Below, piece by piece: positions 2,426-63,878 of a DNA stretch of 64,000 nt. Numbering within the stretch: the first letter of the stretch is position 1; every line of letters starts with the position of its first letter. The position numbers and the translations under genes were made by a program. This stretch comes from Eledone cirrhosa (lineage: Eukaryota), in NCBI GenBank assembly GCA_964016885.1, contig OZ024760.1, positions 34,038,001 through 34,102,000 on the forward strand, written 5' to 3'. The notes under the pieces were generated by a model. The model did no database searches and was not told the DNA's origin. It was given only the letters and a program-made list of their open reading frames with translations.

Positions 2426-2780
2426 GTACCAGTGATGTACTGGGTAATTGGTGGCCTTGTGCCAAAAGTAGAAACGATTATTATTATTATTATTATTATT
2501 GCATTATTATTATTATTATTATGGATAATTGCTGGCCTTGTGCCAAACGTAGAAACAATTATTTTATTATTTTACTTTGCTTTTCCTCCTTTTTTTCTGT
2601 TTGCTATAATCTTAATCTCTCTATTTTCAGTTTCACGGATTAATCATCAGATTTCAAAGAGACCCCCCCCCCCCCCCCTCCATCATTGCAAGAAATACTT
2701 TGAAGAATTATGCCAGGAAAAGGGAAGGCTATTAATTGTGACATTTCCAGTCGATCCTCCATGGAAACATAGCTGACAAA

Positions 2781-3884
2781 ATGAGAATATTAACGATGTA
2801 TTTACTTAAAATAATGTCATCTCTCCGCTTTGGAATCCAGAAGATAGCCACACTTCTCTGTCTCTTTATTGTGGTTGCATTCATGTTTATGAATACACAT
2901 TTTCCTGAAAATTCCAACACAGCCAGACGTGTAAGCCAGCGTCTGGTGATAAAGGCAAAATCTCGTCACCACTGGAACAGAACTATTTCATGGAATCTTG
3001 AAGAGTTGTTTGTCAAGAAAGTTATACAACCTCCTTGTTGCCCTCATTGCTTGTTTGTCATTTTAATCATTTCTGCTCCCAGCAATGTTGAAAAGCGGAT
3101 GGCGATTCGCCAGACCTGGTGCCAGCCCCCAAATTCCTCCAGACATACTGGAGAAGGAAATGGTGTTGGTATTAATGCTGCAGTTGGTCTAAAGACATGG
3201 CAATGTGTGTTTCTTATTGGCCAGACAAGTGATGTGAAAACAAAGTTAGCAATCAACCAAGAAATGGAAGTTCATCGTGATATCCTGATCGGGAGTTATA
3301 TTGATACATACCGTAATTTAACGTTGAAAGTTTTCCATGGTTTCTATTGGGTCCACAGCAGTTGCAAACCTAAGTTTGTTTTAAAGACAGATGATGACTG
3401 TTTCGTAAACACTCACCTTCTCTATCGCTTGCTCACCAATTCCAACAGCAGCATAGAAAAACAGAGGATTTATGTGGGCGATATAAACTTGAGTCTCAAG
3501 AAAAGGATTGTATTGAGAAATACTGACAGTAAATGGAAAGTAAAAAAAGCTGAATATGGTAAACGGTACTACCCTCCTTATGCCCGTGGATTGGGTTATA
3601 TATTGTCATCAGATGTCATCACCAAAATGTTGGACATTAGTAAATACTTTAAACCTTTTCCCAATGAGGATGCTTTCGTTGGTATGATTTTGAATTTCTT
3701 GGGTATAGCTCCAATTAAAAGCCAGAGGTTTACAAGCCTTCCCACTGGTTGGACGATATGTAACTTTCTCTACCTTCTCGTCATACATAACATTTCTCCA
3801 GCTTCACAGAAAACTCTTGAGAATAAAACGAACCACGCTCCTTTGATTTGCAAAGGGCAGCATTTCATAACCACATGGAACTGA
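2781..3884 (+). CDS. Beta-1,3-galactosyltransferase / GT31 family type II membrane glycosyltransferase, 367 aa, single coding exon
   Basis: N-terminal TM (IATLLCLFIVVAFMFM) and GT31 motifs LIISAP..R.AIRQTW, VFLIG, DTYRNLTLK, FVLKTDDDCFVN (DxD), YPPY..GLGYILS, EDAFVG. A polypyrimidine/CAG acceptor ends at 2630 upstream. Confidence 0.93.
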   Translation: MRILTMYLLKIMSSLRFGIQKIATLLCLFIVVAFMFMNTHFPENSNTARRVSQRLVIKAKSRHHWNRTISWNLEELFVKKVIQPPCCPHCLFVILIISAPSNVEKRMAIRQTWCQPPNSSRHTGEGNGVGINAAVGLKTWQCVFLIGQTSDVKTKLAINQEMEVHRDILIGSYIDTYRNLTLKVFHGFYWVHSSCKPKFVLKTDDDCFVNTHLLYRLLTNSNSSIEKQRIYVGDINLSLKKRIVLRNTDSKWKVKKAEYGKRYYPPYARGLGYILSSDVITKMLDISKYFKPFPNEDAFVGMILNFLGIAPIKSQRFTSLPTGWTICNFLYLLVIHNISPASQKTLENKTNHAPLICKGQHFITTWN

Positions 3885-8878: not shown

Positions 8879-9774
8879 TTGCGAGGAAATGTATGATATG
8901 TAAGGTAAACCCCCGGATAAACTGTAAAACTAGAAACGTAGTCTATAGCATAAGATGTACAGAGGGTACTTGCAGAAACATGACAACAACATACATAGGT
9001 GAGACAGCTCGTAGCATAGGTGAAAGGATAGACCAACACTAAAAGGACGAAAAAACGGTTCAGTACTATACGAACAGGCTAGTTCAGTACTATACGAACA
9101 TGACGGTAACATAGACAACATAGAAATTAGAATAATATCTAAACATAGAAATGACCCAGCAGATAGGCAAATCAGAGAGGCCAGTGAAATAGAAATTAGA
9201 AGACCAAGACTAAACAGAAAGAATGAATGGAATAACAACAACACCCAAACAAACAACACTGACCTAAGAGAAGTATAAATAAGTAAATAAAATAAAATAA
9301 AAAATAAATAAATAAATAAATAAATACACATGCACAATAACAACAAGCACATAAACACACACTAGTCACCCATCACACAGCAAACAAAACACTATACACA
9401 CACGCAAACGCATGCGCAAAGAAGACAAAATAAAATAAACAAACAAGCAAATAAATAAATAAATATATAGACAGACTGAATAAAAATGGCGTAGACATAC
9501 AATACAACAGGAGGAAACGATAACACCACTGACGATGTTGCAGATGTGCAATGAAAGATTTATGATAAACTATATATATGTGTTTGTGTCTATATTGTAT
9601 CTGTATTATTTTTGACCGTCGGTCAGTCAATGGCAACATTGAGGACCGATTAAGTTAGATTACCGATATAAAAGACACAGAAGCGAGAAACGAAAACCAA
9701 CCAAACAGTGAGTGTGTTCTGTTATTAATTCTGGCAATATTACACAAATATGACCCTCCCCAAGTATAACAATA

Positions 9775-9775
<1 letters not shown>
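8877..9775 (+). mobile_element. Penelope-like element, 5'-truncated (GIY-YIG endonuclease plus 3' pseudo-LTR), inserted in (TA)n
   Basis: [28 protein letters not shown]...[16 protein letters not shown]. Degenerate hammerhead near 9526-9566 (CTGACGA-TGTTGCA/TGCAAT-GAAA). 3' end ATGACCCTCCCCAAGTATAACAAT(AT)n. Confidence 0.8.
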
Positions 9776-9832
<57 letters not shown>

Positions 9833-9892
9833 TATACATACATATATATATACATATATATATTCATATATATATATATATATATATATGTG

Positions 9893-10169
9893 GGCGGGTA
9901 AAATTCCCGAGATCCATGGACGAGTTCCCTCATTATCGCTGCCATGTCCTGCGTCTCCAACAGACCAGTGTCTGTCCTTAGGGCATCAAAATACGTTAAC
10001 CTTGGTCTTCCTCTTCCAGTGTGTCCATGTAGGGGATCCCACAGGAGCACTGAGTGCAATGTCAATTCTGGATGTCAGTGAGCATGTCCAGCTAACCTCA
10101 GTGTCGTCTATGTCACTTTTGAGCTGACTTTTGGGAGGCTCCCATACAGCTCTGAGTTTTTCATCCTCA

Positions 10170-10172
<3 letters not shown>
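9893..10172 (-). mobile_element. RTE-clade LINE 3' fragment
   Basis: Near-identical to the 3' part of 17917-18365 ([11 protein letters not shown]...GSREFYPP). Confidence 0.75.
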
Positions 10173-10223
<51 letters not shown>

Positions 10224-14332: not shown

Positions 14333-14384
14333 ATTAAGAAGCGATTGTCTAATGTCATGAAGTATCTATTCTCAAAAATTAAAC

Positions 14385-15855
14385 TCTCTCATTACCATAT
14401 TTCTAATGAAAGACACTGTCTATGTCATTAATCCTTTCATTACCATATTTATAATGACATAGACAGTGTCTTTCATTGGAAATATGGTAATGAAAGGATT
14501 AATGACATAGTCAGTGTCTTTCATAGAAATATGGCAATGAAAGGATTAATGACATAGACACTGTCTATGTCATTAACCCTTTCATTGCCATATTACTAAT
14601 GAAAGACACTGTCTATGTCATTAACCCTTTCATTACCATATTTCTGATGAAAGACACTGTCTATGTCATTAACCCTTTCATTACCATATTTCTAATGAAA
14701 GACACTGTCTATGTCATTAACCCTTTCATTACCATATTACTAATGAAAGACACTGTCTATGTCATTAACCCTTTCATTACCATATTTCTGATGAAAGACA
14801 CTGTCTATGTCATTAACCCTTTCATTACCATATTTCTAATGAAAGACACTGTCTATGTCATTAACCCTTTCATTACCATATTTCTAATGAAAGACACTGT
14901 CTATGTCATTAACCCTTTCATTACCATATTTCTAATGAAAGACACTGTCTATGTCATTAACCCTTTCATTACCATATTTCTAATGAAAGACACTGTCTAT
15001 GTCATTAACCCTTTCATTACCATATTTCTAATGAAAGACACTGTCTATGTCATTAACCCTTTCATTACCATATTTCTAATGAAAGACACTGTCTATGTCA
15101 TTAACCCTTTCATTACCATATTTCTGATGAAAGACACTGTGTATGTCATTAACCCTTTCATTACCATATTTCTAATGAAAGACACTGTCTATGTCATTAA
15201 CCCTTTCATTACCATATTCCTAATGAAAGACACTGTCTATGTCATTAACCCTTTCATTACCATATTTCTAATGAAAGACACTGTCTATGTCATTAACCCT
15301 TTCATTACCATATTCCTAATGAAAGACACTGTCTATGTCATTAACCCTTTCATTACCATATTTCTAATGAAAGACACTGTCTATGTCATTAACCCTTTCA
15401 TTACCATATTTCTAATGAAAGACACTATCTATATCATTAACCCTTTCATTACCATATTCCTAATGAAAGACACTGTCTATGTCATTAACCCTTTCATTAC
15501 CATATTTCTAATGAAAGACACTGTCTATGTCATTAACCCTTTCATTACCATATTCCTAATGAAAGACACTGTCTATGTCATTAACCCTTTCATTACCATA
15601 TTTCTAATGAAAGACACTGTCTATGTCATTAACCCTTTCATTACCATATTTCTAATGAAAGACACTATCTATATCATTAACCCTTTCATTACCATATTCC
15701 TAATGAAAGACACTGTCTATGTCATTAACCCTTTCATTACCATATTTCTAATGAAAGACACTGTCTATGTCATTAACCCTTTCATTACCATATTCCTAAT
15801 GAAAGACACTGTCTATGTCATTAACCCTTTCATTACCATATTTCTAATGAAAGAC
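14385..15855. repeat. 48-bp minisatellite (about 30 units, with about two inverted units near 14455-14560)
   Basis: Unit TTAACCCTTTCATTACCATATTTCTAATGAAAGACACTGTCTATGTCA. Confidence 0.95.
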
Positions 15856-16064
15856 ATTACATGTGATTTTGAAATAAGTTTGGAAAAATTATGAGGTTTA
15901 CAACAAACTTTTTTCATAATTTATCTGGTGTTTGGTACATATCTTAAATATTCTTACATAAAATTATGATGAAAGATTTAAAAATAATTATAAGCACTTT
16001 AGAATAAACGGTTTGGCACCGTATGACTTGAGGGTGGGAGTAGTGTAAGTTGGTAACGAAAGGG
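15825..16064. mobile_element. TTAA-type MITE whose left end equals the 48-bp satellite unit
   Basis: TIR CCCTTTCATTACCA at 15825 and TGGTAACGAAAGGG ending at 16064, flanked by TTAA and TTAG. Confidence 0.6.
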
Positions 16065-17430: not shown

Positions 17431-17460
<30 letters not shown>

Positions 17461-17461
<1 letters not shown>

Positions 17462-17897
17462 ACGAAGGAAATGTGGTAAGAAACCAGGTGGACCATAACG
17501 CACCAAAGTACTCAATACTCAATACTGATTTTAGTCCAGAATTAGCCGTCGAAACGGCTTGAGCTCAGCCGTCGGGGTAAGAATATTTTCGAAACAGCGA
17601 GTGGGTTTGAAATGATTAGAGATGTAAGCTGTCGCCTTATTTTGACTAAAGAAATTAAAGAAATTATTTAGCCTGATAGTGGGGTGAAGAACCCTCGGAG
17701 AAATGGAAAAAGATGAGTATTGACGTACATGGGAGTCGAACCCACATCTTTGGTTATCCGGACCATTTACACCAACCCATCATGTTGGTTCGACTCCCAT
17801 GTACGTCAATACTCATCTTTTTCCATTTCTCCGAGGGTTCTTAATCCCACTATCAGGCTAAATAATTTCTTTAATTTCTTTAGACAAAATACGGCGA
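17461..17897 (-). mobile_element. tRNA-headed element inserted in (TA)n with an inverted partial duplication at its 5' end
   Basis: Minus strand has A box TGGTGTAAATGG, B box GGTTCGACTCC and T-stem GTGGG/CCCAT. 17788-17897 is an inverted copy of about 17630-17742. Relatives at 18609-18843, 39941-40060 and 58007-58155. Confidence 0.7.
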
Positions 17898-17916
17898 TAT
17901 ATATATATATATCTAT

Positions 17917-18365
17917 CTAAGGCGGGTAAAATTCCCGAGATCCATGGACGAGTTCTCTCCAGCGGTCTCTGTCCCTCATTATCGCTGCCATGTCCTGCGT
18001 CTCCAACAGACCAGTGTCTGTCCTTAGGGCATCAACATACGTTAACCTTGGTCTTCCTCTTCTAATGTGTCTATGTAGGGGCTCCCAAAGGAGCACTGAG
18101 TGCAATGTCAACTCTGGATGTCGGTGAGCATGTCCAGCTAACCTCAGTCTCCTCTGTGTCACTTTTGAGCTGACTTTTGGGATGCTCCCATACAGCTCTG
18201 AGTTTTTCATCCTCAGTGTATACTGATTAATGTTCAGAGCCATCCTCAACATTCTCGTGTAGCACCCATCCACCATCTGAGTGAGTTTCTTGGTCAGTGT
18301 CCAAGTCTCAGACCCATACAGCAGCACAGACTCCATTACAGCAATGAAGAGGCGGACTTTCAGGT
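17917..18365 (-). mobile_element. RTE-clade LINE 3' portion
   Basis: LLYGSETWTLTK...[11 protein letters not shown]...GRPRLTYVD, a typical RTE ORF C-terminus. Confidence 0.8.
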
Positions 18366-18572
18366 CTGGGTATGACATTAAACTACATCCAGTGGCAAGG
18401 CTCCAGCTCGGGAGTTCAGGAGTTGTGGGGAATGTGGAGTTACCCCTTAGTTGTCATGACTCACAGGTCTGCCCTGGCCCGGGGTGGTAGTACCTGTTAG
18501 GGCTCCATTTATGGGTTAAATAACTACCTTATTCGAGTGGCGCCGGTAAGGTATTGTCAACCATTTGAAAAG

Positions 18573-18612
<40 letters not shown>

Positions 18613-19529
18613 AAGTATGACCCCGACGGCAGAGCTCAAGCCGTTTCGACGGCTATTTCTAGACTAAATTAGAATTTTTAGCCTGGTTAAAAATTCTAAT
18701 TTAGTCTAGAAATAGCCATCGAAACGGCTTGAGCTCTGCCGTCGGGGTCATACTTTTTCCTATTACCCACTCTACTACTCTAAGTATTGAGTATTCTGGT
18801 GCGTTATGGTCCATCTGGTTCCTTACCACAATTCCTTCGTTATATATATATAAACTTTAATCTGTTATTTTAATAAATATATATATATATATATTGTATT
18901 TATATATATATATATATATATATATGAAAACAGGGAGAATAAGACGATTATTAGGAAGAAAAATATATTTTTGTTTCCCTTTTTATTTATTTCTATCTTT
19001 TTTCTGGGTTAGAAAATGATTAAAACGAAATATTTTACTTTGTGTGAAGTGTTAAGGTATTAGTTGATTTATTTATTAATTAACAATGGCATTTATATAT
19101 ATATATATATATATATAAATTTTAGTACAGCATAGACGAAGCTCTAGTATACGGCCAAGCTAGCGTGTATGCTTATTCGGTTTGTAGCTTTAGCACTCAT
19201 ATGAGGTAAGACCCCAGAGTATAACATTATGTTCAGACAGCTTAGCAAATTAGATATAGCAGTCGGCAGTCCGACCGCATCACTAGAGCAACGAAAATAC
19301 AGGACCCAGGTAAAGATTTTTTACTGACCTGGACATAACGCTGAGGCTGGGTGTAAAATATACAATCCACATGGTGTTTCCACAATATTGATCGCAAAAT
19401 CGCACGCAGCGACAGCGTTAAGTTTCTGCAAATCCATGATCGACAAATTCCTATTGCAAGAACAATGATATATATATATATATATCATTGTTCTGTGTCG
19501 TTTGTTTTGTTATTTTTTACTTTTTACTC

Positions 19530-19563
<34 letters not shown>

Positions 19564-19697
19564 GCAGAGGTTATATTTAATTTGTTGGGATTCAACAAGC
19601 TTAAAAAATGTTATAACTGATATAAAGCACTCATCAGTTTAGTGGAGTAAATACACAATATATTAATAAATGGAAACTATATTTATAAAACCATATT

Positions 19698-19761
19698 TAT
19701 TTTACTATACATATTTCAAGGGCCACCAAGGCAAATTATTGTGCTCTCATCAGATAAAATA
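19698..19761 (-). ncRNA. Minimal hammerhead ribozyme
   Basis: UAUUUUAU-CUGAUGA-GAGCAC...GUGGCCCUU-GAAA-UAUGUA-UA^-GUAAAAUA; stem II is imperfect. Confidence 0.6.
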
Positions 19762-19904
19762 CAGATATGTTTTATAAATAAATATTGACATACCCGGAAA
19801 AAAAGACAACCTTAATGGTTGGAGCTTCCTGGATTGGTGGCCCTTGAAATATGTATAATAAAATAAATATGGTTTTATAAATATAGTTTCCATTTATTAA
19901 TATA

Positions 19905-19994
<90 letters not shown>

Positions 19995-20630: not shown

Positions 20631-22479
20631 ATACCTTCCTGCCAGATGGTTGAACGTCTGAAAGTATATACTTTCCTTATTCATATTAACGGTTGAGCAG
20701 CCTAATTCGCATATCGAGTGAGTTTAGTTGGCCGGGCGCACCGAAAACGATAAATGGAATAGAATGAAACGAAATTTCATTTCTCACTCTTAGTACTTAC
20801 ATATATACTTATATATATATACTTATATACACATCGATCGTGCCTCGAGCTGGTCGCCATAGAAACGATTGTAATATGTCGAATAAATTCTATTCGTCGC
20901 AACACTGATTCTCTTTATTTTCTGTGATATCATACTCTGGTCTATGAGACCATCGAGTGCTCATACGGCCTACCGCATACGGATGCTTTAAGCATCCAAC
21001 ACCAATTACTTATATATATATATATATTTATTTATTTAAAAATATGCTCAGCGTTTACGAATTCAAATTACAACATCATTAATAAAGAAAGAGGGAGAAA
21101 AAAGAAAGAGAGAGAAAAAAAAGAGAAAAATGAACCAACATCATAACCTTTTATATTTTATATTTTCTCTCTTTCATTTTCTATCTTTCTATTTCTTTCC
21201 CTAAATTTATTTCATCTCTTACATTATATCTTATCGTATTATTTTCACTCCTAATATAACTTACAATTAATTAATTGATTAATTATTTATTTAATTAATT
21301 TATTAATTTAACTAATACATATATGAATATATTTAACATTTTTCATGTTTATACCATCATATCTCTATATTTTAACCACCAACACCACAACTACTCTCAA
21401 TAATCATAGTATGTTTACTTTTCACATATCAAATTTTTTTATTTATTTTTTATCATATTTTGTATTATTTTTATCATCCTCCTTTTAACTTATTTATTAA
21501 CATTTATTCATTTATTATTATTACCTTTATTATTTTTTTTTTCTATTTTTCTTTTTTTTCTTTTTCCTTATCTTTTATCTTTTTTCTCTCTGTCTTTTTT
21601 CTCTATATCTTTCTCTTTTTTTCTTCTTTCTCTCTTTTTTCTCTTTTTTTCTCTCTCTTTCTTTTTTTTCTATCTCTCTTTCTTTATTAACGATGTTGTA
21701 ATTTGAATTCGTAAACGCTGAGTATATTTTTAACAGTCCCTTCTGATGATCTGGTTAAGCTAACAGCGTATTTAAAATTGAGTGGCACAGCTTCAAGTGT
21801 TCAGCAATTTTTAGACAACTTAATCAGTGAAACAATCGTTAATACTGTAAATAAAACCCCTTTTTTGTACTGTTGAGCATGTTATTCTTCACTCTTTCAA
21901 TATTATTACTCCAAGATAAACTTACATAGGAATTCCCGAGAAATCACAAACTCGCCACCTACGGAAACCCCTTGTTGAGTCAAACAACGCCGTACGCTAA
22001 AACTATCCACAATACGGAGAGTATTCACAACCTCTAATTGGATTACCTATAACGATATTATGTTATCCCTTATATTTATTTATTTATATATATACTTATA
22101 TATAATAAAATATAAAAGAAAAATGAACACAGACATATACATATATGTGTTCAAATCGTAAGGGACCGGATTCGCTCAGGTGAATAGTTGTCTATAGTTA
22201 GTATTCTTTTCACCTTAGCGAATCTGGTTCCTTACGATTTGAACACATATATGTATATGTCTGTGTTCGTTTTTCTTTTATATTCTATTATAATATACGG
22301 CTCGGAAATATCTCTTTCTTAGAGCTATTTTATTGTAAGAGACTATTTTGAGTTCCTAACTCAATATATACCTTTGATTAAGAGAAGTGGGGGCGGGGCG
22401 GATAAAAAGAAGGAAATCGTGTGAATTAGTAATTCTGATATCTCGTCTATTGTCTTTGATAACCTTACACAATATAGCT

Positions 22480-24702: not shown

Positions 24703-24948
24703 TTCGTTTCTGAATTTGTTTAGCAAGATTCTTTATCTGAAATCGTGTGTTGAAACCGATATTGTTATACTTTGGGAGGGTCATGTTGCCAATAAGAAAC
24801 ACACGCACCAGTTGCTTTCACTTCAATTTATTATATATTTATAAGTTTGTAGATTTGTAAATTTATAAATTTATAAATATATAATAAATTGAAGTGAAAG
24901 CAACTGGTGCGTGTGTTTCTTATTGGCAACATGACCCTCCCAAAGTAT

Positions 24949-25005
<57 letters not shown>

Positions 25006-25421: not shown

Positions 25422-27310
<1,889 letters not shown>

Positions 27311-27700: not shown

Positions 27701-27717
27701 AGTGTGTGGTTATTTAC

Positions 27718-28228
27718 CTGATGTGTATGAGACTATAAACATAACAACACCCATCGCAGTTCCAGTGAAACCCAAACCAGACGAATACTTTTCCGGTCCC
27801 AGCGTTTCCATGGCGACCGTCGTGTAGACCGCTGTTACCATGCCAATGGCGACGCCGAGGAATGCCGATATACCGAACAGACTTTCCAAGGTGGAGAAGA
27901 GCGGGAACATGGCCAACGCCAACCCGGCCACTACGACACTCACTGATTGGACGTCCCAAGCGGTCACCGTTTGGTATGCCATGATTGCCATAGCAACAAC
28001 ACCTCCAGGTATTGACCCTATGCCGTACATGAAAAGCATATTAGCACCGTCGTCTTCATCGATGCCCTTCTCGCGGGCATAGTCCACCATGAAGGTGACG
28101 AAAATCAAGAGACTGCTGTAGACAAAACAGGTGACCAACACGTAATACAAGAAAGTGAGGTTCTTCAAGATGGAGACATCAAACAGTTGGTCCGGAAGCA
28201 GTTTTTTACTCTTCAGAATCGGTTTCTC
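27718..28228 (-). CDS. SLC16/MCT-like transporter, exon D (short loop, TM7-TM11)
   Basis: EKPILKSKKLLPDQLFDVSILKNLTF...DYAREKGI...LGPEKYSSGLG...SYTSG; ccatcag acceptor and G|GTAAAT donor; phase 0-1. Confidence 0.92.
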
Positions 28229-28334
28229 CTGATGGAAAAAACACAGAAAGAAAACATTTTAAAAAATCAAAAACAAACGAAAAAATAGAGAGCGAGTGAA
28301 TAAAGTGAGAGAGAGAGAGCGTATGTGTACTGAT

Positions 28335-28976: not shown

Positions 28977-29044
28977 GTGAGGTTTTTTTTACAAAATGAA
29001 AAATAACCGAGGTGTCCTACACGAGTGAAAGTATAAAGAAAAAA

Positions 29045-29335
29045 AGATGAAATCGAAAATGCAACTGGAGTCTTATTTTTTTTTAAATATATATATTTAT
29101 TTGGTTCCTTTACCGGTTTCGCAGTTCTTCTACTTTTCAAAAGTAGAGTTGAGATGGAGGGTCTGTGGTTTTTCTCACATCTGGGTGATTCTCACAGATG
29201 TGAGAAAAACCACAGACCCTCCACCTCAACTCTACTTTTGAAAAGTAGAAGAACTGCGAAACCGGTAAAGGAACCAAATAAATATATATATTTTTTTAAA
29301 AATAAGACTCCAGTTGCATTTTCGATTTCATCTTG
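29045..29335. mobile_element. Palindromic PLE-derived insertion with a U3:A8-variant hammerhead in each arm (29108-29143 minus, 29235-29270 plus)
   Basis: Arms of about 140 bp are inverted around an 11-bp spacer; motif CUU-UUGAAAA-GUAG aagaa CUGC-GAAA-CCGG-UA^-AAG. Confidence 0.7.
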
Positions 29336-30328
29336 TTTCTCGCTCTCTATCTCTTTCTCTCTCTATATATATATACTCAATGACCTCACCCAAACACTAT
29401 AGTCTGTCGTCAGGTAACCACCTTTACAGCCTGTCATACAGGCTAAAACATATATTCTGCTGTCAGGTAAATACCTATACAGTCTGGCGTCAAGTAACCA
29501 CCTATACAATTTGCCGTACAGGTAAAAACCCATACAACCTGCAATACAGGTAAGCACTAATATAGATATTTCTGTGGTTATTCCTTTTTATTTTCATAAT
29601 TCTTAGCATCCTGTAATTAATTTAGCAGAAAATATCTTAAAACTAGTTTGTTAATTTAAATATTTTTAGTATCTTTACTAATTAACAGATCCCTTGTTAA
29701 ATGTATATTTCTTATTCCACAATGCTTCAAGCAAACTACAACCCTTTGAAATTAATATGTTTATTACTTTAGACAGAGACCAATATGAAATAAGTCCTCA
29801 AAAGTCTTTAAGTCTAAATCTGTCTCAAGCCCAGAGCTTCATCAGGTTGGTGTTTATCTCAGTCTCTGTGGTGTTAAGCGACTGGGAGTACAAGACGCTT
29901 CCCTGGACAAGACACCAGTCCATAGCAGAGTTAAACCCCCAGCTATTACTGGTACTCATTTTCAGCTGAGTATGCTGGAGCTAGGTGAAATGAAGTGTTT
30001 TGTTGAAAAACACAACACAGAACCCAGTCCAGGATTCAAACCCACGACATTATGATCGTAAATCCAACACACCTCCAAAAAGTTTGCTGGTATTACAGTA
30101 AAAATATTGACTATTTAATGTGATGTAGTCTAAATGTTATGTAAAGGATTTAGCAGAAAATATGTAAACATTAGTTTGTTACTTCAAACGTTTTAGTACC
30201 ATTGCTAATCTCAAACGATTATATATATATATATATAATTATCCCAGTACTTTATTTTACTGGGTCGATCAAATAAAGTACCAGTATTACACTGGGATAA
30301 TTGCTGGCCTTGTGCCAAAAGTAGAAAC

Positions 30329-34814: not shown

Positions 34815-34896
34815 GTTCAAGATAAAACCTAAAGAGAAGCCAAACACGAGGAGACAATAACAGAACTGTAGATATTGAATTCTACTTTATACTGAC

Positions 34897-35135
34897 CTTT
34901 TCCCTGTTGTTGGTCAGCAGAAGTCCAGCGACGCAGTTATTGAAGAGCACACCTGATATAATCATAAGTCCACCACGCCAGGTGAAATATTCACTCAAGA
35001 TCTGCATTATCTTAGACAAACTAAATATTCCACAGGTGAATCCGACACTAATTAGGGCATTAGGGATTCGGACACTGTCGAAGTGTTGACCAATAGCGAT
35101 GAAAAGGGAGACATACGCTAGACAGGAACCCGTAC
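34897..35135 (-). CDS. SLC16/MCT-like transporter, exon C (TM4-TM6); not shown in the ORF track
   Basis: Manual translation gives GTGSCLAYVSLFIAIGQHFDSVRIPNALISVGFTCGIFSLSKIMQILSEYFTWRGGLMIISGVLFNNCVAGLLLTNNREK, containing the MCT WRG...G...N.CVAG motif; tttctag acceptor, AAG|GTCAGT donor; phase 1-0. Confidence 0.9.
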
Positions 35136-35507
35136 CTAGAAAAAGAGAAATAAATAAATCAGGAAATTGGCAGAATGGGTAGAGCGCCAGACAAAATATT
35201 TAGCATTTATTTGTTCCGACATCTTACGTTCTGAGTTCAAATCCCGTCGAGGGATTTGCCTTTCACCCTTACGGGGTTGATAAAATAAAGTACCAGCAAT
35301 GCACTGGGGTCGATTTAATTGACTCCCCGTCCCCCAAAATTGCTGGCCTTGTGCCTATACTAGAAATTATTACTATTATTATTATTGTCATTTTTATTTT
35401 CTTTCATTATTGTTTCTGAGATATATTCCGAGTGTCTTCTTGACACCTAGGACAAATAAATTCACAGTGTGCATTGGTAAGCCAGTTAATACAGCACATT
35501 GATTATA

Positions 35508-38401: not shown

Positions 38402-38553
38402 TGTTATCTATATTTGTGTGTGTTTACGTTCACTGTTTGTTTATAACATAGCGGTTCGACAAACAGTGGTCGATAAAGAAGCCGATCGTGGAGTAAATGA
38501 CTTAACCAGTGAACAAGAAGAGTAAAAAGAGGCCACATTTGGGCGAAACTTAC

Positions 38554-38697
38554 CAGCCAGCACACCTAGAGGTGCAATAAGGAAATAGGGGCTGTTGGCA
38601 AAAGCACAAATAAAGACACCAACCATCTGGCATAGGGCCCCAATCAATATGGTGAACCGTGTCCCTATTTTGTTGATTAAAGCCGTACACAAGATTC
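38554..38697 (-). CDS. SLC16/MCT-like transporter, exon B (144 bp, TM3 to start of TM4)
   Basis: GILCTALINKIGTRFTILIGALCQMVGVFICAFANSPYFLIAPLGVLAG, matching the MCT loop 2-3 motif; ttctag acceptor and G|GTAAGT donor; phase 1-1. Confidence 0.9.
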
Positions 38698-38823
38698 CTA
38701 GAAGAAAAAACCCGGAAATGGAAGAATATTTGTAATAATAATAATAATAATGGTGGTGGCGGTGATGTTCAGTAATTTATGGGTGGGGAAATTAGTTTAC
38801 ATCGAACCCATTATTTTCTTTCT

Positions 38824-38925
<102 letters not shown>

Positions 38926-38944
38926 ATATATATATATATATATA

Positions 38945-39350
38945 TTAAAATATAAATATCAATAAAATAATGTTCTTTTGATCAATTACATTTTATTATA
39001 CATATTTCGGATGTACAACAGTACGTCCTCATCAGACAAAATATAATGATACATGACATACCCTGAGATGTTAAATCGTTAAGATTTAATCAAGGTAGTA
39101 CCTTGCTTAAATTTTAACCATTTAACATCTCAGGGTATGTCATGTATCATTATATTTTGTCTGATGAGGACGTACTGTTGTACATCCGAAATATGTATAA
39201 TAAAATGTAATTGATCAAAAGAACATCTATTTTATAAATATTTATATTCTAATATTAATAACTCCGGAAAATTATTTTTCCGTAGAGTGCTTCTAATCTA
39301 CTGTAAAACTCATTCTTTGACATAATCATTGAATATCGTTTAACACTTTA
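38945..39350. mobile_element. Palindromic PLE-derived insertion with hammerheads at 38985-39047 (-) and 39149-39211 (+)
   Basis: Inverted arms of about 155 bp; AUUAUAUUUUGU-CUGAUGA-GGAcGUAC uguu GUACaUCC-GAAA-UAUGUA-UA^-AUAAAAUGUAAU (12-bp stem I). A related copy at 39690-39930 has a hammerhead at 39721-39784. Confidence 0.8.
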
Positions 39351-39425: not shown

Positions 39426-39670
39426 TAGAAGTGATTACACAACAGTTACTTCACCATACCGCGAACAATTGTTTCACCTTAGCGGATCCTCAGCTCGTAA
39501 TGGACATGGTTCCGTATAACCATGTCCATTACGAGCTGAGGATCCGCTAAGGTGAAACAATTGTTCTCGGTATGGTGAACTAACTGTTGTGTAACCACTT
39601 CTACCTAACTCGTCCCATGGACTGAGTGCTCTACCACTACGGATATTACCTTCCAGTGTTCTACCACTAT
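39426..39670. mobile_element. Palindromic PLE-derived insertion with hammerheads at 39460-39497 (-) and 39532-39569 (+)
   Basis: CGAG-CUGAGGA-uCC gcuaa GGu-GAAA-CAAUUG-UU^-CUCG; inverted arms of about 85 bp; (TA)n flanks. Confidence 0.72.
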
Positions 39671-40060
39671 ATATATATTGAACCATCAAGAGAGTTGAGG
39701 TATGTCATGCACCAATTCATATATTTTATCTGATGAGTGCGTACTGAAAAACACAGTACCTCCGAAATATATATAATAAAACATATATTTTGATTATGTG
39801 AACGTATTCATTTATTAATATTTTGAATAATATTATTAACTCCAGAAAACGTCGCGGTAGAGTGCTTTTAATCTGTTGTAAAACTATATTCATTGAGTAA
39901 TCAATGAATCATATTAATCTTTGGTTATATATATATATAGGAAAAAGTATGACCCCGACGGCAGAGCTCAAGCCGTTTTGACGGCTATTTCTGGACTAAA
40001 TTGGAATTTAATACTACCCTAAGTATTGAGTACTCTGGTGCGTTATGGTCCATCTGGTCC

Positions 40061-41882
40061 ATTAAGTTTGCTAAGGATAACTCTGACCTTACAAACGATG
40101 AAATTAAGATTATATTAGAAGCTAGGAAAACTATAGTCAAATTTGAGAACAGTTATTGGGTACGTAAAGATAGACCCTCTAACTTTGACATAACAATGGG
40201 CTCTAACGATTCGGCGGAAATAACTGATATTGTGGGGTTATTTATCGCCTTTAGACTCCAGGAAAAATTCAGCAATCTCCACGGCGGAATATACCGCGAC
40301 GATGTTCTCCTCCTAGCTAAAAACCTTAATAACCAAAAACTAGAAAAACTACGCAAAGATATAAGAAAACTACTACTCGAAATAGGACTAACTATAACAT
40401 ATGAATACAACCTTAAAGTAGTTAACTTCCTGGATGTCACACTCAATTTAAACTCTGGTTTGATTAAACCGTTTCATAAATTGAATGAAAATCTCAAATA
40501 CGTAAATGTTGGGTCTAACCACCCCATCTCTATAATTAAATCTATCCCTAAAAATATTTCCCTTAGAATCTCGGGTCTATCTTCTAACATACAAGTATTT
40601 AAGGAACACGCCGAGTACTACGATAACGCCCTTAGTAAAGCAGGCTACCTCAACAAAATAGAGTACATAGATGGGAACAATCAAAACACCCAAAATAAAT
40701 CCCACATAGGTAGATATAATAACACAACACCAAACCACACTTACTACCATAGTATGCACACCAGTAAACCAACAAACAAAACTAATAGAAAGCGATGCAA
40801 AGAGTACTTATGGTATAACCCCGAATACAATAGCTCCATTAGTACAAATTTACCAGTACTCTTCTTTAAAATAATTAAAAGACATTTTCCCACATCACAC
40901 AAATACCACAAAATCCTAAACCCTACCACTATAAGACTGTCATACTCTACAGCGTTAAACCTTGAACAACACATAAAAAAGATCAATACTAGAAGGTTAA
41001 ACGAAAACACTAAGAACTTAAGTACAAAGAACACAAAAAAAACAGTAGACAATACACTACAGAACATAAATAAACCACACCTAAGTTCGTCCGCAATACT
41101 ACTCCAGAGAAAACCCAACGTACACAACTGTAACTGCACCTATCCTGACAACTGCCCCCTCGGCAATAACTGCCTGGAAAAAAATATTATTTATAAGTGT
41201 ACCATTAAATCCGGAGGCAACGAGTGGTATTACGTGGGATCAACGGCAACATCGTTTAAATCTCGATTGTATAGGCATTCTTACTCAATAAAACACCAGA
41301 GCCAAAGAAATGTAACAACTCTAGCAGAAAAAGCTTGGACGCTCAGGGATAGCGATCAAAAGTTTACCCTAAAATGGGAAAAATTAGCTAAAACCCAAAG
41401 CTTTTCCAGGAGCCAAAATTTCTGCAAATTGTGTAATCTTGAGATTTATTACATAATCACACACAAGAAGAAACTGCTGAATAACAGAATTGAACGAACA
41501 TTATTCTGCCGTCACAGAACTAAAACCCTTTTTTCCCACTACAAGCCGAATATTACATAAAAGAGGGACATCCCCCAACTATATAAACCTTAATCTAGTT
41601 AGAAAAATATAAAAACAATCTCTTCTCAACATATATTAATAACCTTAAATTACCATACTAATAATGAAAAGATATGCTGATGAGAATAGGTACAAATATG
41701 CGATAATGAATGTGTCTAAAAACGTCCATAAGTATGTATATATATGTGAAAATGTATATAAATAAGTAAATATATATATATGTTTGATGTGTATAGTTAG
41801 ATGTAAGTGTATTCATGTATTAAAGTGCTTATATATATATATATATGTATATGTGTGTATATGTATGTTTGTGTATGTATGC

Positions 41883-42694: not shown

Positions 42695-43212
42695 TAAAAG
42701 AATAGAGGTGTAACACACAAGTTATTATATATTGGTAAACGGAATAGAAAATGCTGACAAATTGTTCACAGTTGAAAAATGGTTTAATTAGGAATAAAAG
42801 AGTATTAGTGATTGTATTCAGTTGTGGTTTTAAGTTTTTAAGTTTTTACCGGTTGCGCATTTCTAAATGCTTTTCAAAAATAATTTTGAGATAGAGTGTC
42901 CGTGCTGTTTGCTCTGATCTGATTAGTTTTGGGAATTCTACCTGTTTTTATGTTAAAAAAGTGGCTCCAGCGTTATTTTTGTGTTACAAAAATGCTTGTG
43001 GTCAAAACAATTTTGATTGGTCGGTAGAGGTCATGTGAATGTAAAAAGTTAATTTTGCGCCAAGACTGTTTTTATGTTAAAAAAGTGGCTCCAGCAAAAA
43101 TTCTTGGTCAAAACAATTTTGATTGGTCGGTAGAGGTCATGTGGATAAAAAATTGGTTTTGCGCCAAGATTGAGAAATGACTCTTTCACAACAAATATGT
43201 GTGTGTATGTGT

Positions 43213-43296
<84 letters not shown>

Positions 43297-43365
43297 TAGT
43301 AGTAGTAAGGTGTTCGATGCTGCGACAATGGCCAGCAGCGATGTGTGTCAAATGGCTATTAAGAT

Positions 43366-43402
<37 letters not shown>

Positions 43403-43570
43403 GCAGAGTAATTCGATGGTCAGTAAGAATGTGTCTGAAAGCAATGGGGGGTATTTTAGCATGTCAAAAGATATTTTTCAGCTTTTGTCTTATACGGAGA
43501 AGTGCGTGTGTGTGTGTGTGTGTGTATAAGTCTCTTTGTATGTTGATGTACGCGTGTGTATGTGTTTGTG

Positions 43571-43615
<45 letters not shown>

Positions 43616-44120
43616 ACCAGTATTTTTTTCCCCCTGGTAAAATGGTGTACATTATTCGATTTTTTCAGTAACATTTTTTATCCAATTTTTTATCCACATG
43701 TCCTCTACCGACCAATCAAAATTGTTTTGACCAAGAATTTTTGCTGGAGCCACTTTTTTAACATAAAAAACAGTCTTGGCGCAAAATCAACTTTTTACAT
43801 TCACATGACCTCTACCGACCAATCAAAATTGTTTTGACCACAAGCATTTTTGCAACACAAAAATAACGCTGGAGCCACTTTTTAAACATAAAAACAGGTA
43901 GAATTCCCAAAACTAATCAGATCAGAGCAAACAGCACGGACACTCTATCTCAAAATTATTTTTGAAAAGCATTTAGAAATGCGCAACCGGTAAAAACTTA
44001 AAAACTTAAAACCACAACTGAATACTAACCCATACAATTACTAATACTCTTTTATTCCTAATTAAACCATTTTTCAACTGTGAACAATTTGTCAGCATTT
44101 TCTATTCCGTTTACCAATAT
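42695..44120. mobile_element. Inverted pair of a roughly 440-bp PLE-type unit separated by a (GT)n-rich spacer; variant hammerhead-like motif in each arm
   Basis: 42730-43155 is the reverse complement of about 43680-44120; motif UUGAAAA-GCAUUU ag AAAUGC-GCAA-CCGG-UA at 43959-43995. The same family forms the palindrome at 56340-56740. Confidence 0.75.
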
Positions 44121-44586
44121 ATATATATATATATATAATTGTTTCTAATTTTGGCACAAGGCCAGCAATTATCCAGTCTATTACTGGTACTTTATTTTAT
44201 CGACCCCGTAAGGATGAAAGGCAAAGTTAACCTCGGCAGGATTTGAACTTAGATCATAAAGGGACGTAACTCTATGCTTCAAAGCATGGCGTCCGACTCT
44301 ACCGATACTGCCAATCCACCGCCTTTATATATATATATATATAATGCAAAGGAAAGGTAATGTCTAGACACATGTATCCACACCATGACTGTTTGTAAGA
44401 ATTTCACAGGTGTAATGGTATAAGAAGATCTGATTATATATATATATATGAGAGAGAGAGAGAGGGCGGGGACCAAACGCATGGCATAACTTGTGGACTG
44501 AGGACAGAATCACGTTAGATAAAATTTGCTGGAATTTTGAAACATTAAAATCCGAACATTTTGGGGGGATGAGATTTAATTCTTAC

Positions 44587-55827: not shown

Positions 55828-56284
55828 TATATATATATAGTTTTTCGAATATTAATAATAACATTCGATTCGTTTGCAATTATGCAAAGAGCAAGAATGA
55901 AGTGTTCATTCTACTGACATGGCTATAAAATTGAGGCTTGTTTGCATAATTGCAAACGAATAGAATGTTATTATTAATATTCGAAAAACTCAGATTACAT
56001 TTATTGTATTCTGCCATGTAGAGCGAAATTTTCTTTATATATATATATATTTCGGGGATTTGATTCTGACTTAGGGTTCTTTCTATTTAATTGCCAACCT
56101 GTAGGTGTTGTTTTCCATACAGTAACGGTTAAACCCACATGTAATAATTCTTTACACACATCTCACTGTGTAACACACTTCTCTCTGTGTGATATATTTG
56201 TATTTGAGCTCAGTTGAAAATTGTCTGTTCTTCTTTGAGCTAATATTATTACTGTGAACTGCGGAATACTCTAATTCCGATCCT

Positions 56285-58006: not shown

Positions 58007-58194
58007 GTAAGAATATTTTCGAAATAGCGAGCGAGTTTGAAATTATAAATGTAAGATATCGCCGTATTTTGCTAAAGAAATTAAAGAAATTATTTAGCCT
58101 GATAGTGGGGTTAAGAACCCTCGGAGAAATGGAAAAAGCTGAGTATTGACGTACATATATATATATATATATGTACACACACAGATATTTATAT

Positions 58195-59217: not shown

Positions 59218-59868
59218 CAAACAGATAAGTATATATATATATATTCAGATAAGTGCCTGTGTGTTTATATATATATATATATATGCGACATGTAAACGGA
59301 AAACAACAGAGTAAACAATACGGTACAATGAAGATTACTTCAACAACTGATTGACACACACACATATATATATATACACATACATATACATACACACACA
59401 AACACATATATATACACAAACACATATATTATAGATATGTATGTGTCTGTATGTCTGTGTGTATTTATGTCTCTGTGTGTCTCTGTGTGTCTGTATGTGT
59501 GCATGTCTGTGTGTCTGTGTGTGTATGTGTGTCTGTGTCTGTGTGTGTGTGTGTGTGTGTGTCTGTGTGTCTGTGTGTCTCTGTCTGTCTCTGTATGTAT
59601 GTGTGTATGTGAGTGTGTCTATGTCTGTCTCTGTATGTGTGTATGTGTCTGTGTCTGTCTGTGTGTATGTGAGTGTGTCTGTGTCTGTATGTATATGTGT
59701 ATGTGAGTGTGTCTGTGTCTGTGTCTGTATGTATGGGAGTGTGGCTGTGTCTGTATGTGTCTGTGTCTGTCTGTATGTATGTGAGTGTGTTTCATATCAG
59801 TATTCCCAGCCAACTTCTTTACTTTCACTTTGTCTCGCAAAAAAACATCTCAATGTTGTTGTTGTTAC

Positions 59869-62800
59869 ATCAAACCAGCTGACAGACAGTGGTCCCTTCT
59901 TAGACACACCCGTACACAGGGACCCATCAGACCAGCTGACAGACAGTGGTCCCTTCTTAGACACACCCTTACACAGGGACCCATCAGACCAGCTGACAGA
60001 CAGTGGTCCCTTCTTAGACTCACCCTTACACAGGGACCCATCAGACCAGCTGACAGACAGTGGTCCCTTCTTAGACTCACCCTTACACAGGGACCCATCA
60101 GACCAGCTGACAGACAGTGGTCCCTTCTTAGACACACCCTTACACAGGGACCCATCAGACCAGCTGACAGACAGTGGTCCCTTCTTAGACTCACCCTTAC
60201 ACAGGGACCCATCAGACCAGCTGACAGACAGTGGTCCCTTCTTAGACACACCCTTACACAGGGACCCATCAGACCAGCTGACAGACAGTGGTCCCTTCTT
60301 AGACTCACCCTTACACAGGGACCCATCAGACCAGCTGACAGACAGTGGTCCCTTCTTAGACTCACCCTTACACAGGGACCCATCAGACCAGCTGACAGAC
60401 AGTGGTCCCTTCTTAGACTCACCCTTACACAGGGACCCATCAGACCAGCTGACAGACAGTGGTCCCTTCTTAGACACACCCTTACACAGGGACCCATCAG
60501 ACCAGCTGACAGACAGTGGTCCCTTCTTAGACACACCCGTACACAGGGACCCATCAGACCAGCTGACAGACAGTGGTCCCTTCTTAGACTCACCCTTACA
60601 CAGGGACCCATCAGACCAGCTGACAGACAGTGGTCCCTTCTTAGACACACCCTTACACAGGGACCCATCAGACCAGCTGACAGACAGTGGTCCCTTCTTA
60701 GACTCACCCTTACACAGGGACCCATCAGACCAGCTGACAGACAGTGGTCCCTTCTTAGACACACACTTACACAGGGACCCATCAGACCAGCTGACAGACA
60801 GTGGTCCCTTCTAAGACACACCCTTACACAGGGACCCATCAGTCCAGCTGACAGACAGTGGTCCCTTCTTAGACTCACCCTTACACAGGGACCCATCAGA
60901 CCAGCTGACAGACAGTGGTCCCTTCTTAGACTCACCCTTACACAGGGACCCATCAGACCAGCTGACAGACAGTGGTCCCTTCTTAGACACACCCTTACAC
61001 AGGGACCCATCAGACCAGCTGACAGACAGTGGTCCCTTCTTAGACACACCCGTACACAGGGACCCATCAGACCAGCTGACAGACAGTGGTCCCTTCTTAG
61101 ACTCACCCTTACACAGGGACCCATCAGACCAGCTGACAGACAGTGGTCCCTTCTTAGACACACCCTTACACAGGGACCCATCAGACCAGCTGACAGACAG
61201 TGGTCACTTCTTAGACACACCCTTACACAGGGACCCATCAGACCAGCTGACAGACAGTGGGCCCTTCTTAGACACACCCTTACATAGGGACCCATCAGAC
61301 CAGCTGAGAAGACAGTGGTTCCTTCTTAGAAACACCCTTACACAGGGACCCATCAGACCAGCTGACAGACAGTGGTCACTTCTTAGACACACCCTTACAC
61401 AGGGACCCATCAAACCAGCTGACAGACAGTGGTCCCTTCTTAGACACACCCTTACACAGGGACCCATCAGTCCAGCTGACAGACAGTGGACCCTTCTTAG
61501 ACACACCCGTACACAGGGACCCATCAGACCAGCTGACAGACAGTGGTCCCTTCTTAGACTCACCCTTACACAGGGACCCATCAGACCAGCTGACAGACAG
61601 TGGTCCCTTCTTAGACACACCCTTACACAGGGACCCATCAGACCATCTGACAGACAGTGGTCACTTCTTAGACACACCCTTACACAGGGTCCCATCAGAC
61701 CAGCTGACAGACAGTGGGCCCTTCTTAGACACACCCTTACATAGGGACCCATCAGACCAGCTGAGAAGACAGTGGTTCCTTCTTAGAAACACCCTTACAC
61801 AGGGACCCATCAGACCAGCTGACAGACAGTGGTCACTTCTTAGACACACCCTTACACAGGGACCCATCAAACCAGCTGACAGACAGTGGTCCCTTCTTAG
61901 ACACACCCTTACACAGGGACCCATCAGTCCAGCTGACAGACAGTGGTCACTTCTTAGACACACCCTTACACAGGGACCCATCAAACCAGCTGACAGACAG
62001 TGGTGCCTTCTTAGAAACACCCTTACACAGGGACCCATCAGTCCAGCTGACAGACAGTGGTCACTTCTTAGACACACCCTTACACAGGGACCCATCAAAC
62101 CAGCTGACAGACAGTGGTCCCTTCTTAGACACACCCTTACAGAGGGACCCATCAGACCAGCTGACAGACAGTGGTCCCTTCTTAGACACACCCTTACACA
62201 GGGACCCATCAGACCAGCTGACAAACAGTGGTCCCTTCTTAGACACACCCTTACACAGGGACCCATCAGACCAGCTGACAGACAGTGGTCCCTTCTTAGA
62301 CACACCCTTACACAGGGACCCATCAGACCAGCTGACAGACAGTGGTCCCTTCTTAGACACACCCTTACACAGGGACCCATCAAACCAGCTGACAGACAGT
62401 GGTCCCTTCTTAGACTCACCCTTACACAGGGACCCATCAGTCCAGCTGACAGACAGTGGTCCCTTCTTAGACTCACCCTGACACAGGGACCCATCAGACC
62501 AGCTGACAGACAGTGGACCCTTCTTAGACTCACCCTTACACAGGGACCCATCAGACCAGCTGACAGACAGTGGTCCCTTCTTAGACTCACACATACACAG
62601 GGACCCATCAGCCCAGCTGACAGACAGTGGTCCCTTCTTAGACTCACCCTTACACAGGGACCCATCAGACCAGCTGACAGATAGTGGACCCTTCTTAGAC
62701 ACACCCTTACATAGGGACCCATCAGACCAGCTGACAGACAGTGGTCCCTTCTTAGACACACCCTTACATAGGGACCCATCAGACCAGCTGACACACAGTG

Positions 62801-63875
62801 GTCCCTTCTTAGACCCACCCTTACATAGCGACCCATCAGACCAGCTGACAGACAGTGGTCCCTTCTTAGACACACCCTTACACAGGGACCCATCAGACCA
62901 GCTGACAGACAGTGGTCCCTTCTTAGACACATCCTTACACAGGGACCCATCAGACCAACTGACAGACAGTGGTCCCTTCATAGACACACCCTTACACAGG
63001 GACCATCAGACCAGCTGAGAGACAGTGGTCCCTTCTTAGACACACCATTTACAGAGGGACCCATCAGACCTACTGACAGACAGTGGTCCCTTCTGAGACA
63101 CACTCTTACACAGATACACATCAGACCAGCTGACACAGTGGTCCCTTCTTAGACACACACTTACACAGGGACCCATCAGACCAGCTGACAGACAGTGGTC
63201 CCTTCTAAGACACACCCTTACACAGGGACCCATCAGACCAGCTGACAGACAGTGGGCCCTTCTTAGACACACCCTTACATAGGGACCCATCAGACCAGCT
63301 GAGAAGACAGTGGTTCCTTCTTAGAAACACCCTTACACAGGGACACATCAGTCCATCTGACAGACAGTGGTCACTTCTTAGACACACCCTTACACAGGGA
63401 CCCATCAGACCAGCTGACAGACAGTGGGCCCTTCTTAGACACACCCTTACATAGGGACCCATCAGACCAGCTGAGAAGACAGTGGTTCCTTCTTAGAAAC
63501 ACCCTTACACAGGGACACATCAGTCCAGCTGACAGACAGTGGTCCCTTCTTAGACACACCCTTACAGAGGGACCCATCAGACCAGCTGACAGACAGTGGT
63601 CCCTTCTTAGACACACCCTTACACAGGGACCCATCAGACCAGCTGACAGACAGTGGTCCCTTCTTAGACACACCCTTACACAGGGACCCATCAGACCAGC
63701 TGACAGACAGTGGTCCCTTCTTAGACACACCCTTACACAGGGACCCATCAGACCAGCTGACAGACAGTGGTCCCTTCTTAGACACACCCTTACACAGGGA
63801 CCCATCAGACCAGCTGAAAGACAGTGGTCCCTTTTTAGACACACCCTTACATGGGGTCCCATCAGACTAGCTAAC
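59869..63875. repeat. 57-bp minisatellite (about 70 units)
   Basis: Unit CAGACCAGCTGACAGACAGTGGTCCCTTCTTAGACACACCCTTACACAGGGACCCAT. Confidence 0.97.
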
Positions 63876-63878
63876 ATA

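Follow-up and report, generated by a model that had tools for sequence, protein, structure and literature searches.

A tRNA-bearing, probably ribozyme-free tandem repeat with a Penelope-type insertion footprint in the genome of Eledone cirrhosa

SINEs are held to depend on LINEs, and the classical tRNA SINEs are short, non-coding, dispersed repeats with A and B boxes in a tRNA-like sequence. Copies of Penelope-like elements (PLEs) are laid out as partial tandems with a 5′ inverted copy and a tail of 30-40 bp, and the Hydra clade of PLEs, whose marks are RW(K/R), DKT, CxCX5C and (TA)n targets, inserts into that microsatellite (Craig et al., PMC8557442). The available portion of the first in vitro work on a PLE, which concerns another such element, indicates that the tail marks two internal starts of reverse transcription, that cDNA starting at two sites yields an inverted arm without the tail, and that a hammerhead is not needed (PMC11167929).

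Several described systems come close to the repeat reported here, a non-coding family termed family A. The schistosome elements Sm-alpha and Sj-alpha share with it short tandem units and an internal Pol III-type promoter, an upstream unit driving the next (PMC6765202). Sm-alpha carries an active hammerhead, whereas in family A none was found whatever the order of the strands, and the accessible part of the Sm-alpha description draws no tie to PLE enzymes and gives no full cloverleaf with a T5 run (PMC6765202). Animal non-LTR retrozymes are likewise non-coding tandem units of 170-400 nt, a range that includes the 257-291 bp of family A, occur as monomers and multimers, and have been proposed to depend on PLEs (PMC7229834; 10.64898/2026.07.22.740005); as far as the available text of these reports goes, each retrozyme unit has a type I hammerhead and often homology to PLE terminal repeats, whereas family A has neither and carries a tRNA-like module. 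The non-autonomous Chlamys elements (MRC1) are also non-coding and head-to-tail, with pseudo-LTRs and no canonical hammerhead in the clade, but their 3′ sequence is in general common to an autonomous family as well, the part of the source at hand mentions no tRNA module in them, and they belong to green algae and to a clade with an N-terminal EN (PMC8557442). The (TA)n target and layout of Hydra-clade PLEs are common to family A, which encodes nothing (PMC8557442). Cassandra, Helenus and Ajax (TRIMp3) resemble family A in having a small-RNA gene, a presumed Pol III promoter, inside the repeat of a non-autonomous, non-LINE retroelement; these are LTR elements with PBS, PPT and TSDs, and family A would be their Penelope-class counterpart (PMC10886601). 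Unlike classical tRNA SINEs, family A has its tRNA inside a tandem unit with a T5 run right after it, no LINE-like tail that could be found, internal priming and inverted arms. By these features it is neither a classical SINE nor a retrozyme, and its layout is that of a non-autonomous PLE.

The locus lies in a stretch of 64,000 nucleotides (here the window; contig OZ024760.1, positions 34,038,001 to 34,102,000), in which the following features, the last three being outlying copies, were delimited.

17433..17461, no strand: (TA)n target in which family B ends
17462..17519, minus strand: last 58 nt (3′ end) of the coding Hydra-clade PLE family B; 57/58 identical to the corresponding end of the L271 unit, which is 3531 bp long
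17530..17578, plus strand: inverted arm of family B, corresponding to the 3′ half of its predicted hammerhead; 48/49 identical to the L271 unit
17577..17782, minus strand: main arm of family A, unit 55-271, joined to family B via a 2-nt overlap with no TA between
17721..17781, minus strand: tRNA-like module corresponding to unit 56-127; the window copy has lost 11 nt of it, and it is intact in other copies
17774-17763, minus strand: A box TGGTGTAAATGG, letters read on the minus strand
17742-17732, minus strand: B box GGTTCGACTCC, within the T-arm, letters read on the minus strand
17707..17711, minus strand: T5 run, unit 137-141, 10 nt after the tRNA; potential Pol III terminator, in the 3′ strand of the long flanking helix
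~17782..17899, plus strand: inverted arm of family A, unit ~100-218
17897..17912, no strand: (TA)n flanking the inverted family A arm on its outer side
58007..58156, minus strand: second family A copy, unit 118-271, bounded by (TA)n at either end; its sequence breaks off at the 3′ side of the tRNA
18609..18841, plus strand: fold-back copy of the family B end, without tRNA
39941..40060, plus strand: family B end pieces fused to a 5′-truncated copy of another Hydra-clade PLE (ORF 40061-41560)

The locus is a fusion of two families, the 3′ end of family B (17462-17578) and a copy of family A (17577-17899), since genome matches split at 17577 and DNA contigs from one sample part from the window sequence at 17578. 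When the genome (3.0 Gb) was searched with 17462-17785, 28 of the 30 best loci matched positions 1-210 of the query alone, down to window 17577; the other two were the locus itself and L003, in which (TA)n separates the A and B parts. The sample contigs that diverge at 17578 continue as family B, their summed depth is several-fold greater over the B part of the locus, and no empty insertion site was seen among them. An earlier note had seen here a single SINE-like element, with a tRNA head at the 5′ end, a body of about 260 bp and an end in (TA)n. The parts it named are present, namely the A box and the B box within a T-arm on the minus strand, the AGCCGT-TTCG-ACGGCT hairpin (17559-17544, minus strand), the (TA)n end and the inverted partial copy, but head and body are not one element, and the tRNA is not at a 5′ end: 55 nt of the unit lie upstream of it and are joined to the 3′ end of the previous unit. 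That a single SINE begins with the tRNA head, includes the UUCG hairpin and ends in the (TA)n at 17461 is hardly credible; the parts are contiguous at this one locus, but no second copy with such a junction occurs among the sampled loci, the 3′ part belongs to coding family B, and the split of the genome loci together with the sample contigs rules the continuous element out. Among the further copies that the same note listed, 18609-18841 and 39941-40060 belong to family B and lack the tRNA, the latter entering a Penelope-like ORF on its right side rather than abutting (TA)n, whereas 58007-58156 does belong to family A and abuts (TA)n but retains almost none of the tRNA.

Family B is a coding family with a 3531-bp unit in intact tandem copies and a single 717-aa ORF (L271), in which an RT is followed by a C-terminal endonuclease and the motifs RWR, DKT and CxCX5C can be recognized. 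Copies of its end extend upstream through ~1 kb of non-coding sequence into the endonuclease ORF on the same strand. Read by eye against published marks (PMC8557442), these motifs place family B in the Hydra clade; a Pfam search gave no family for the three ORF fragments tried. A descriptor search predicts a type I hammerhead with a U3-A8 core at the B end (L271:4654-4745 and window 18690-18763), recovered in two subfamilies, with a variable N7 and a stem II of ~55 nt; the descriptor was matched by 0/100 shuffles, and Rfam missed this hammerhead. The core and the long stem II set family B apart from described Hydra-clade PLEs, and a U3-A8 core is known from schistosome PLEs, according to the available part of that report (PMC4209133). 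At 17530-17578 the order is stem II 3′ strand, GAAA (17551-17554), stem III, GTC (17571-17573) and stem I 3′ strand, and the 5′ half of the core is missing from this copy. The hairpin noted earlier (17544-17559) is the reverse complement of the family B stem II-GAAA-stem III junction, so that the remark that the element has no canonical hammerhead holds for family A, while the hairpin itself is half of a variant hammerhead of family B.

A further family, PLE C, has RT matches that are 100% identical in 150/150 of the matches listed and carries RW(K/R), DKT and CxCX5C. The window itself contains, at 40061-41560 (+), a 5′-truncated but open and very young Hydra-clade PLE that forms a cross-family chimera with the B end pieces; 150/150 of the RT matches listed for it are 100% identical, many with 785-aa frames, and it has RW(K/R), DKT, CxCX5C, a C-terminal endonuclease and a (TA)n target. 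Two Hydra-clade families in the genome look active.

Family A is a non-coding head-to-tail repeat with a 271-bp unit and three subfamilies of 257-291 bp (A1, A2 and A3). Exact matches in the genome number 739 for its 3′ 27-mer and 136 for its tandem junction; 400 kb of random sequence held 0 young copies and 1 old copy, and for that reason copy number is estimated no further than these exact-match counts. Young copies have a median identity of 97.8% to their majority sequence. Unit position 271 precedes position 1 in 30/30 loci found with a junction query, a count biased by a 7-nt overlap, and pure arrays exist (L027 and L375) in which the 271-bp unit has no coding capacity. The array at L375 (G000:C4, ~61,010,100-61,012,600) comprises ~9 units of 272 bp each; variants are common to several of its units, and several of its B boxes are damaged.

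The tRNA-like module occupies unit 56-127 as a full cloverleaf inside the unit. Rfam tRNA scores of 30.6-47.1 bits (cut-off 29) in 6/6 loci scanned, together with ARAGORN calls of tRNA-Ser(GGA), anticodon GGA, in 20/25 hand-chosen loci, make the tRNA likeness more than chance; the window copy gives no tRNA call because 11 nt of its D arm are missing. The module is framed by unit 39-55 and 130-146, between which a helix of up to 17 bp is predicted, and T4 or longer comes after it in 89/94 distinct full cassettes (T5 at unit 137-141). Between the three subfamilies the tRNA core is identical at 54-55 of 56-57 positions and the remainder at 66-77%; the acceptor stem is disturbed in subfamily A2. 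Base pairing in the cloverleaf and flanking helix amounts to 91.9% over 65 sequences, a figure equalled by a shuffled control, and 0/38 pairs changed on both sides, so the fold is predicted and not proven. In a genome search, 16 tRNA-like loci (Thr, Ile and other SINE-like heads) came up, of which none stood out as the parent tRNA; genes for tRNA-Thr and tRNA-Ile are clustered at L281 and L283 (G000:C1, ~243.65-243.68 Mb). From L008:1929 onward a family A copy has its 5′ part swapped, at the B box, for the head of another tRNA-type repeat.

A hammerhead was sought in family A in canonical form, with variant cores and in scrambled strand order, and was rejected: A1, A2 and A3 gave 0 sense-strand matches in any strand order with strict or loose cores, Rfam found none in family A loci, and one antisense loose match in A2 is at chance level (6/100 shuffles).

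The insertion footprint was read from 79 loci chosen by the exact 3′ 27-mer alone from the first ~91 of its 739 matches, on contig C1; four loci of that stretch, all spanning the tRNA, were left out. (TA)n stands at the 3′ end in 75/79 loci and at the other end in 68/79. The main arm ends at unit 270-278 in 69/79 loci and runs into the previous unit, as a partial tandem, in 17/79; an inverted arm overlapping the 3′ region is present in 59/79, and ~40 of these 59 start at unit 225-238, which gives two fixed start points ~35-40 nt apart. No PLE ORF was found at the 5′ junction, nor direct abutment to PLE sequence, in any of the 79 loci, and a second set of 78 loci from biased queries showed the same pattern (76, 58 and 50), against a TA background of 937/10,720 positions. 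Target-site duplications, which (TA)n would hide, were not evident in 5 family A loci with unique flanks.

Comparable inverted arms accompany coding PLE ends among the sampled loci (48/87 for family B and 13/33 for PLE C) and are rare in the controls, with 1/16 ends of the TA-ending LINE adjoining the locus and 2/113 blocks of an ordinary, abundant tRNA SINE (L024:1190-1425 and 40 blocks in 400 kb of random sequence). Since the neighbouring LINE ends in (TA)n in 10/16 copies, (TA)n alone is not diagnostic of PLEs; the ordinary SINE has TA at its end in 7/113, which is an unfair test, as most alignments stop before the SINE 3′ end. The footprint of family A is of Penelope type and rare in a LINE and an ordinary SINE of the same genome. 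In the window, the LINE 3′ fragment at 17917-18453 (-), which we take to be RTE-like by its motifs, also ends in (TA)n, and another copy lies near 9655-10176.

With regard to 5′ ends, the whole tRNA is present in 28/79 main arms, or in 32/83 with the four left-out loci counted. The earlier note had regarded absence of the tRNA from most copies as a sign of chance nesting; it is absent from most, but the cause is 5′ truncation. Ends at unit 109-130, where copies break off sharply on the 3′ side of the tRNA, number 25 against 3.4 expected, and ends at unit 49-58 number 10 against 0.7 expected, in windows that were chosen from earlier loci and with stop positions blurred by microhomology. The former suggest stalling of the enzyme on a folded or modified tRNA. 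The latter pile up from G52 on, upstream of tRNA +1 and up to 4 nt before the tRNA 5′ end. G52 follows a pyrimidine, 11 nt ahead of the A box and 4 nt ahead of the cloverleaf, and its pile-up would fit a Pol III start better than an RNase P cut at G56. Among the 28 arms that reach the tRNA 5′ end, 10 stop there and 18 run past it, so that most long templates did not start at the nearest tRNA; and since the T5 run should end most Pol III transcripts, templates must include multimers.

Family A is likely a non-autonomous, ribozyme-free, tRNA-bearing PLE and not a classical SINE. The explanation that we favour, with moderate confidence, is that a family A insertion has been fused to a family B end, and that family A is a tandem unit that Pol III probably transcribes and that a Hydra-clade RT/GIY-YIG protein probably copies in trans. 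Transcription would begin near unit G52, which lies 4 nt ahead of the cloverleaf and 11 nt ahead of the A box, and occasional read-through of T5 into the next tandem unit would produce RNAs longer than a single unit. Both strands of a (TA)n would be nicked by the PLE protein, and cDNA would start inside the RNA at two sites, ~271-275 and ~226-238, to form the main arm and an inverted arm that lacks the 35-45 nt tail. Frequent stalling of the enzyme on the folded tRNA would produce the ends at 109-130, and running out of template at the RNA 5′ end those at 52-59; only copies keeping a tRNA upstream of a further unit could become new sources. Several results weigh against this explanation: no helper was identified by sequence; the T5 run after the tRNA, which selection has failed to eliminate in three subfamilies, should stop Pol III; 18/28 of the arms that reach the tRNA 5′ end continue beyond it; no pair of the cloverleaf or flanking helix changed on both sides; and the acceptor stem of A2 is disturbed. 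The proposal in the earlier note of a tRNA-bearing non-coding element moved by Penelope machinery therefore survives in part: the family A footprint fits it, whereas a SINE with a 5′ head is wrong, the tRNA lying inside the tandem unit with T5 after it.

Other explanations retain Penelope-type copying and assign the tRNA or the template another role. It is possible, but unlikely, that the tRNA is a processing or folding signal and not a promoter: RNAs from tandem copies or host transcripts would be long read-through products, RNase P would cut them in place of a hammerhead, and Pol III would yield a by-product of 90 nt ending at T5. Such processing would accommodate the T5 retained in 89/94 cassettes, the 18/28 arms passing the tRNA 5′ end, the conservation of the entire cloverleaf and not of the boxes alone, and the existence of the ~9-unit array (L375); but many truncations start at 52-54, upstream of the expected cut at 56, the acceptor stem can be extended by a 17-bp helix between leader and trailer, that stem is disturbed in A2, and cleavage by RNase Z at 127 would leave no usable template. 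Less probable again is a ribozyme-free RNA circle, in which pairing with 130-146 would hold the 5′ end (52-55) next to the 3′ part, positions 39-51 in the following unit, the nick would be ligated, and the enzyme would run around the circle. The helix would bring both ends together, multimers are frequent (136 exact matches to the junction, compared with 739 to the 3′ 27-mer), and retrozymes use circles, as stated in the available text (PMC7229834); yet no way of making a 3′ end at 51 is evident, the helix shows no covariation, the stops at 52-59 would be left without explanation, and genomic arrays account for the multimers without circles. Judged on sequence features, Pol III transcription with read-through would rank first, processing of long RNAs second and the circle third.

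A different possibility, which we regard as improbable, is that family A is just the terminal repeat of a coding PLE outside the sample, much as the earlier note had allowed that its element might be the pseudo-LTR of a coding PLE. This is true of the 3′ 117 bp with the hairpin, which belong to family B. The family A copies at L064 and L088 do abut old Hydra ORF fragments, and the genome sample is small; but the two loci join different, decayed ORFs at different places, independent loci have no upstream flank in common, an ORF occurs at the 5′ junction in 0/79 unbiased loci, position 271 stands before position 1 in 30/30 junction-query loci (with the 7-nt overlap bias), and L027 and L375 are pure arrays. 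Lower still is the chance that family A is a LINE-dependent SINE, for instance of the TA-ending LINE adjoining the locus. Its module is tRNA-derived and that LINE also ends in (TA)n (10/16), but the family A body matches no sampled sequence, LINE ends included, a T5 run follows the head, and internal fixed starts, tandem junctions and overlapping inverted arms were not observed in the LINE (1/16) or the ordinary SINE (2/113).

The search by sequence for a helper of family A, which under the favoured reading would be a Hydra-clade PLE, identified none. A profile of the family A body had no match in 1.27 Mb of masked sampled loci, a small sample that includes LINE ends, and no LINE-like 3′ tail or poly-A was found for family A in the same loci. 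Homology between family A and the family B end, suspected by eye from a shared hairpin motif, was rejected as not significant: the score of 34-39 was equalled by 17-78 of 300 shuffles, and a reverse-strand control did as well (21/300). Family A ends without a microsatellite join Hydra PLE sequence in 5/44 cases, the locus itself included, compared with 15/600 random points (p 0.008), an excess that is suggestive only, since a nested insertion with deletion looks the same. The fusion of two coding families at 39941-41560 is similar to a block at L016:1255-2070, which lies between two (TA)n runs and consists of the 3′ end of a B copy and, at the opposite side, that of an A copy, with a short overlap where they join.

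The partnership that the earlier note had called not well described is less new than claimed, as the accessible parts of the literature include the Pol III-type, tandem, hammerhead-bearing Sm-alpha (PMC6765202) and retrozymes as proposed PLE dependants (10.64898/2026.07.22.740005). No tRNA-bearing, ribozyme-free PLE dependant was found described in open-access full text (a scope that leaves aside Repbase, most subscription papers and supplements, among them that of Craig et al., which may list non-autonomous Hydra families), and the available portions of two cephalopod repeat papers make no mention of such an element (PMC13282606, PMC8967140). We tentatively suggest, at a little under an even chance, that Pol III-driven, ribozyme-free PLE parasites form a class in which a whole tRNA-like gene in a tandem unit provides both the promoter and the definition of the RNA end. 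In such a class the RNA start and the tRNA fold would be written in the truncation points, and its members would be the Penelope counterpart of SINEs for LINEs and of TRIMp3 for LTR elements. If family A is moved by Penelope machinery and expressed by Pol III, small-RNA-gene parasites would be known for all three retroelement classes, and some invertebrate 'tRNA SINEs' or tRNA pseudogenes may be misfiled, as ARAGORN calls intact units tRNA-Ser(GGA). Family A would also offer a small substrate for the study of PLE enzyme recognition, with a 271-nt template, two fixed starts, no ribozyme and no clear helper homology.

Elsewhere in the window, fold-back repeats at 19655-19908, 22097-22297, 24759-24956, 29040-29338 and 38942-39255, and further ones at 39426-39603, 55839-55990, 25465-27140 and 42726-44123, are probably ends of further Penelope-like families. 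An intron-less 380-aa frame at 2742-3884 (+) presumably resembles a beta-1,3-galactosyltransferase, and the frames at 27710-28258, 34882-35199 and 38441-38776 (-) are taken to resemble exons of a membrane transporter gene. Young tandem arrays occupy 14382-15859 and 59868-63876, with units of 48 bp and 57 bp.
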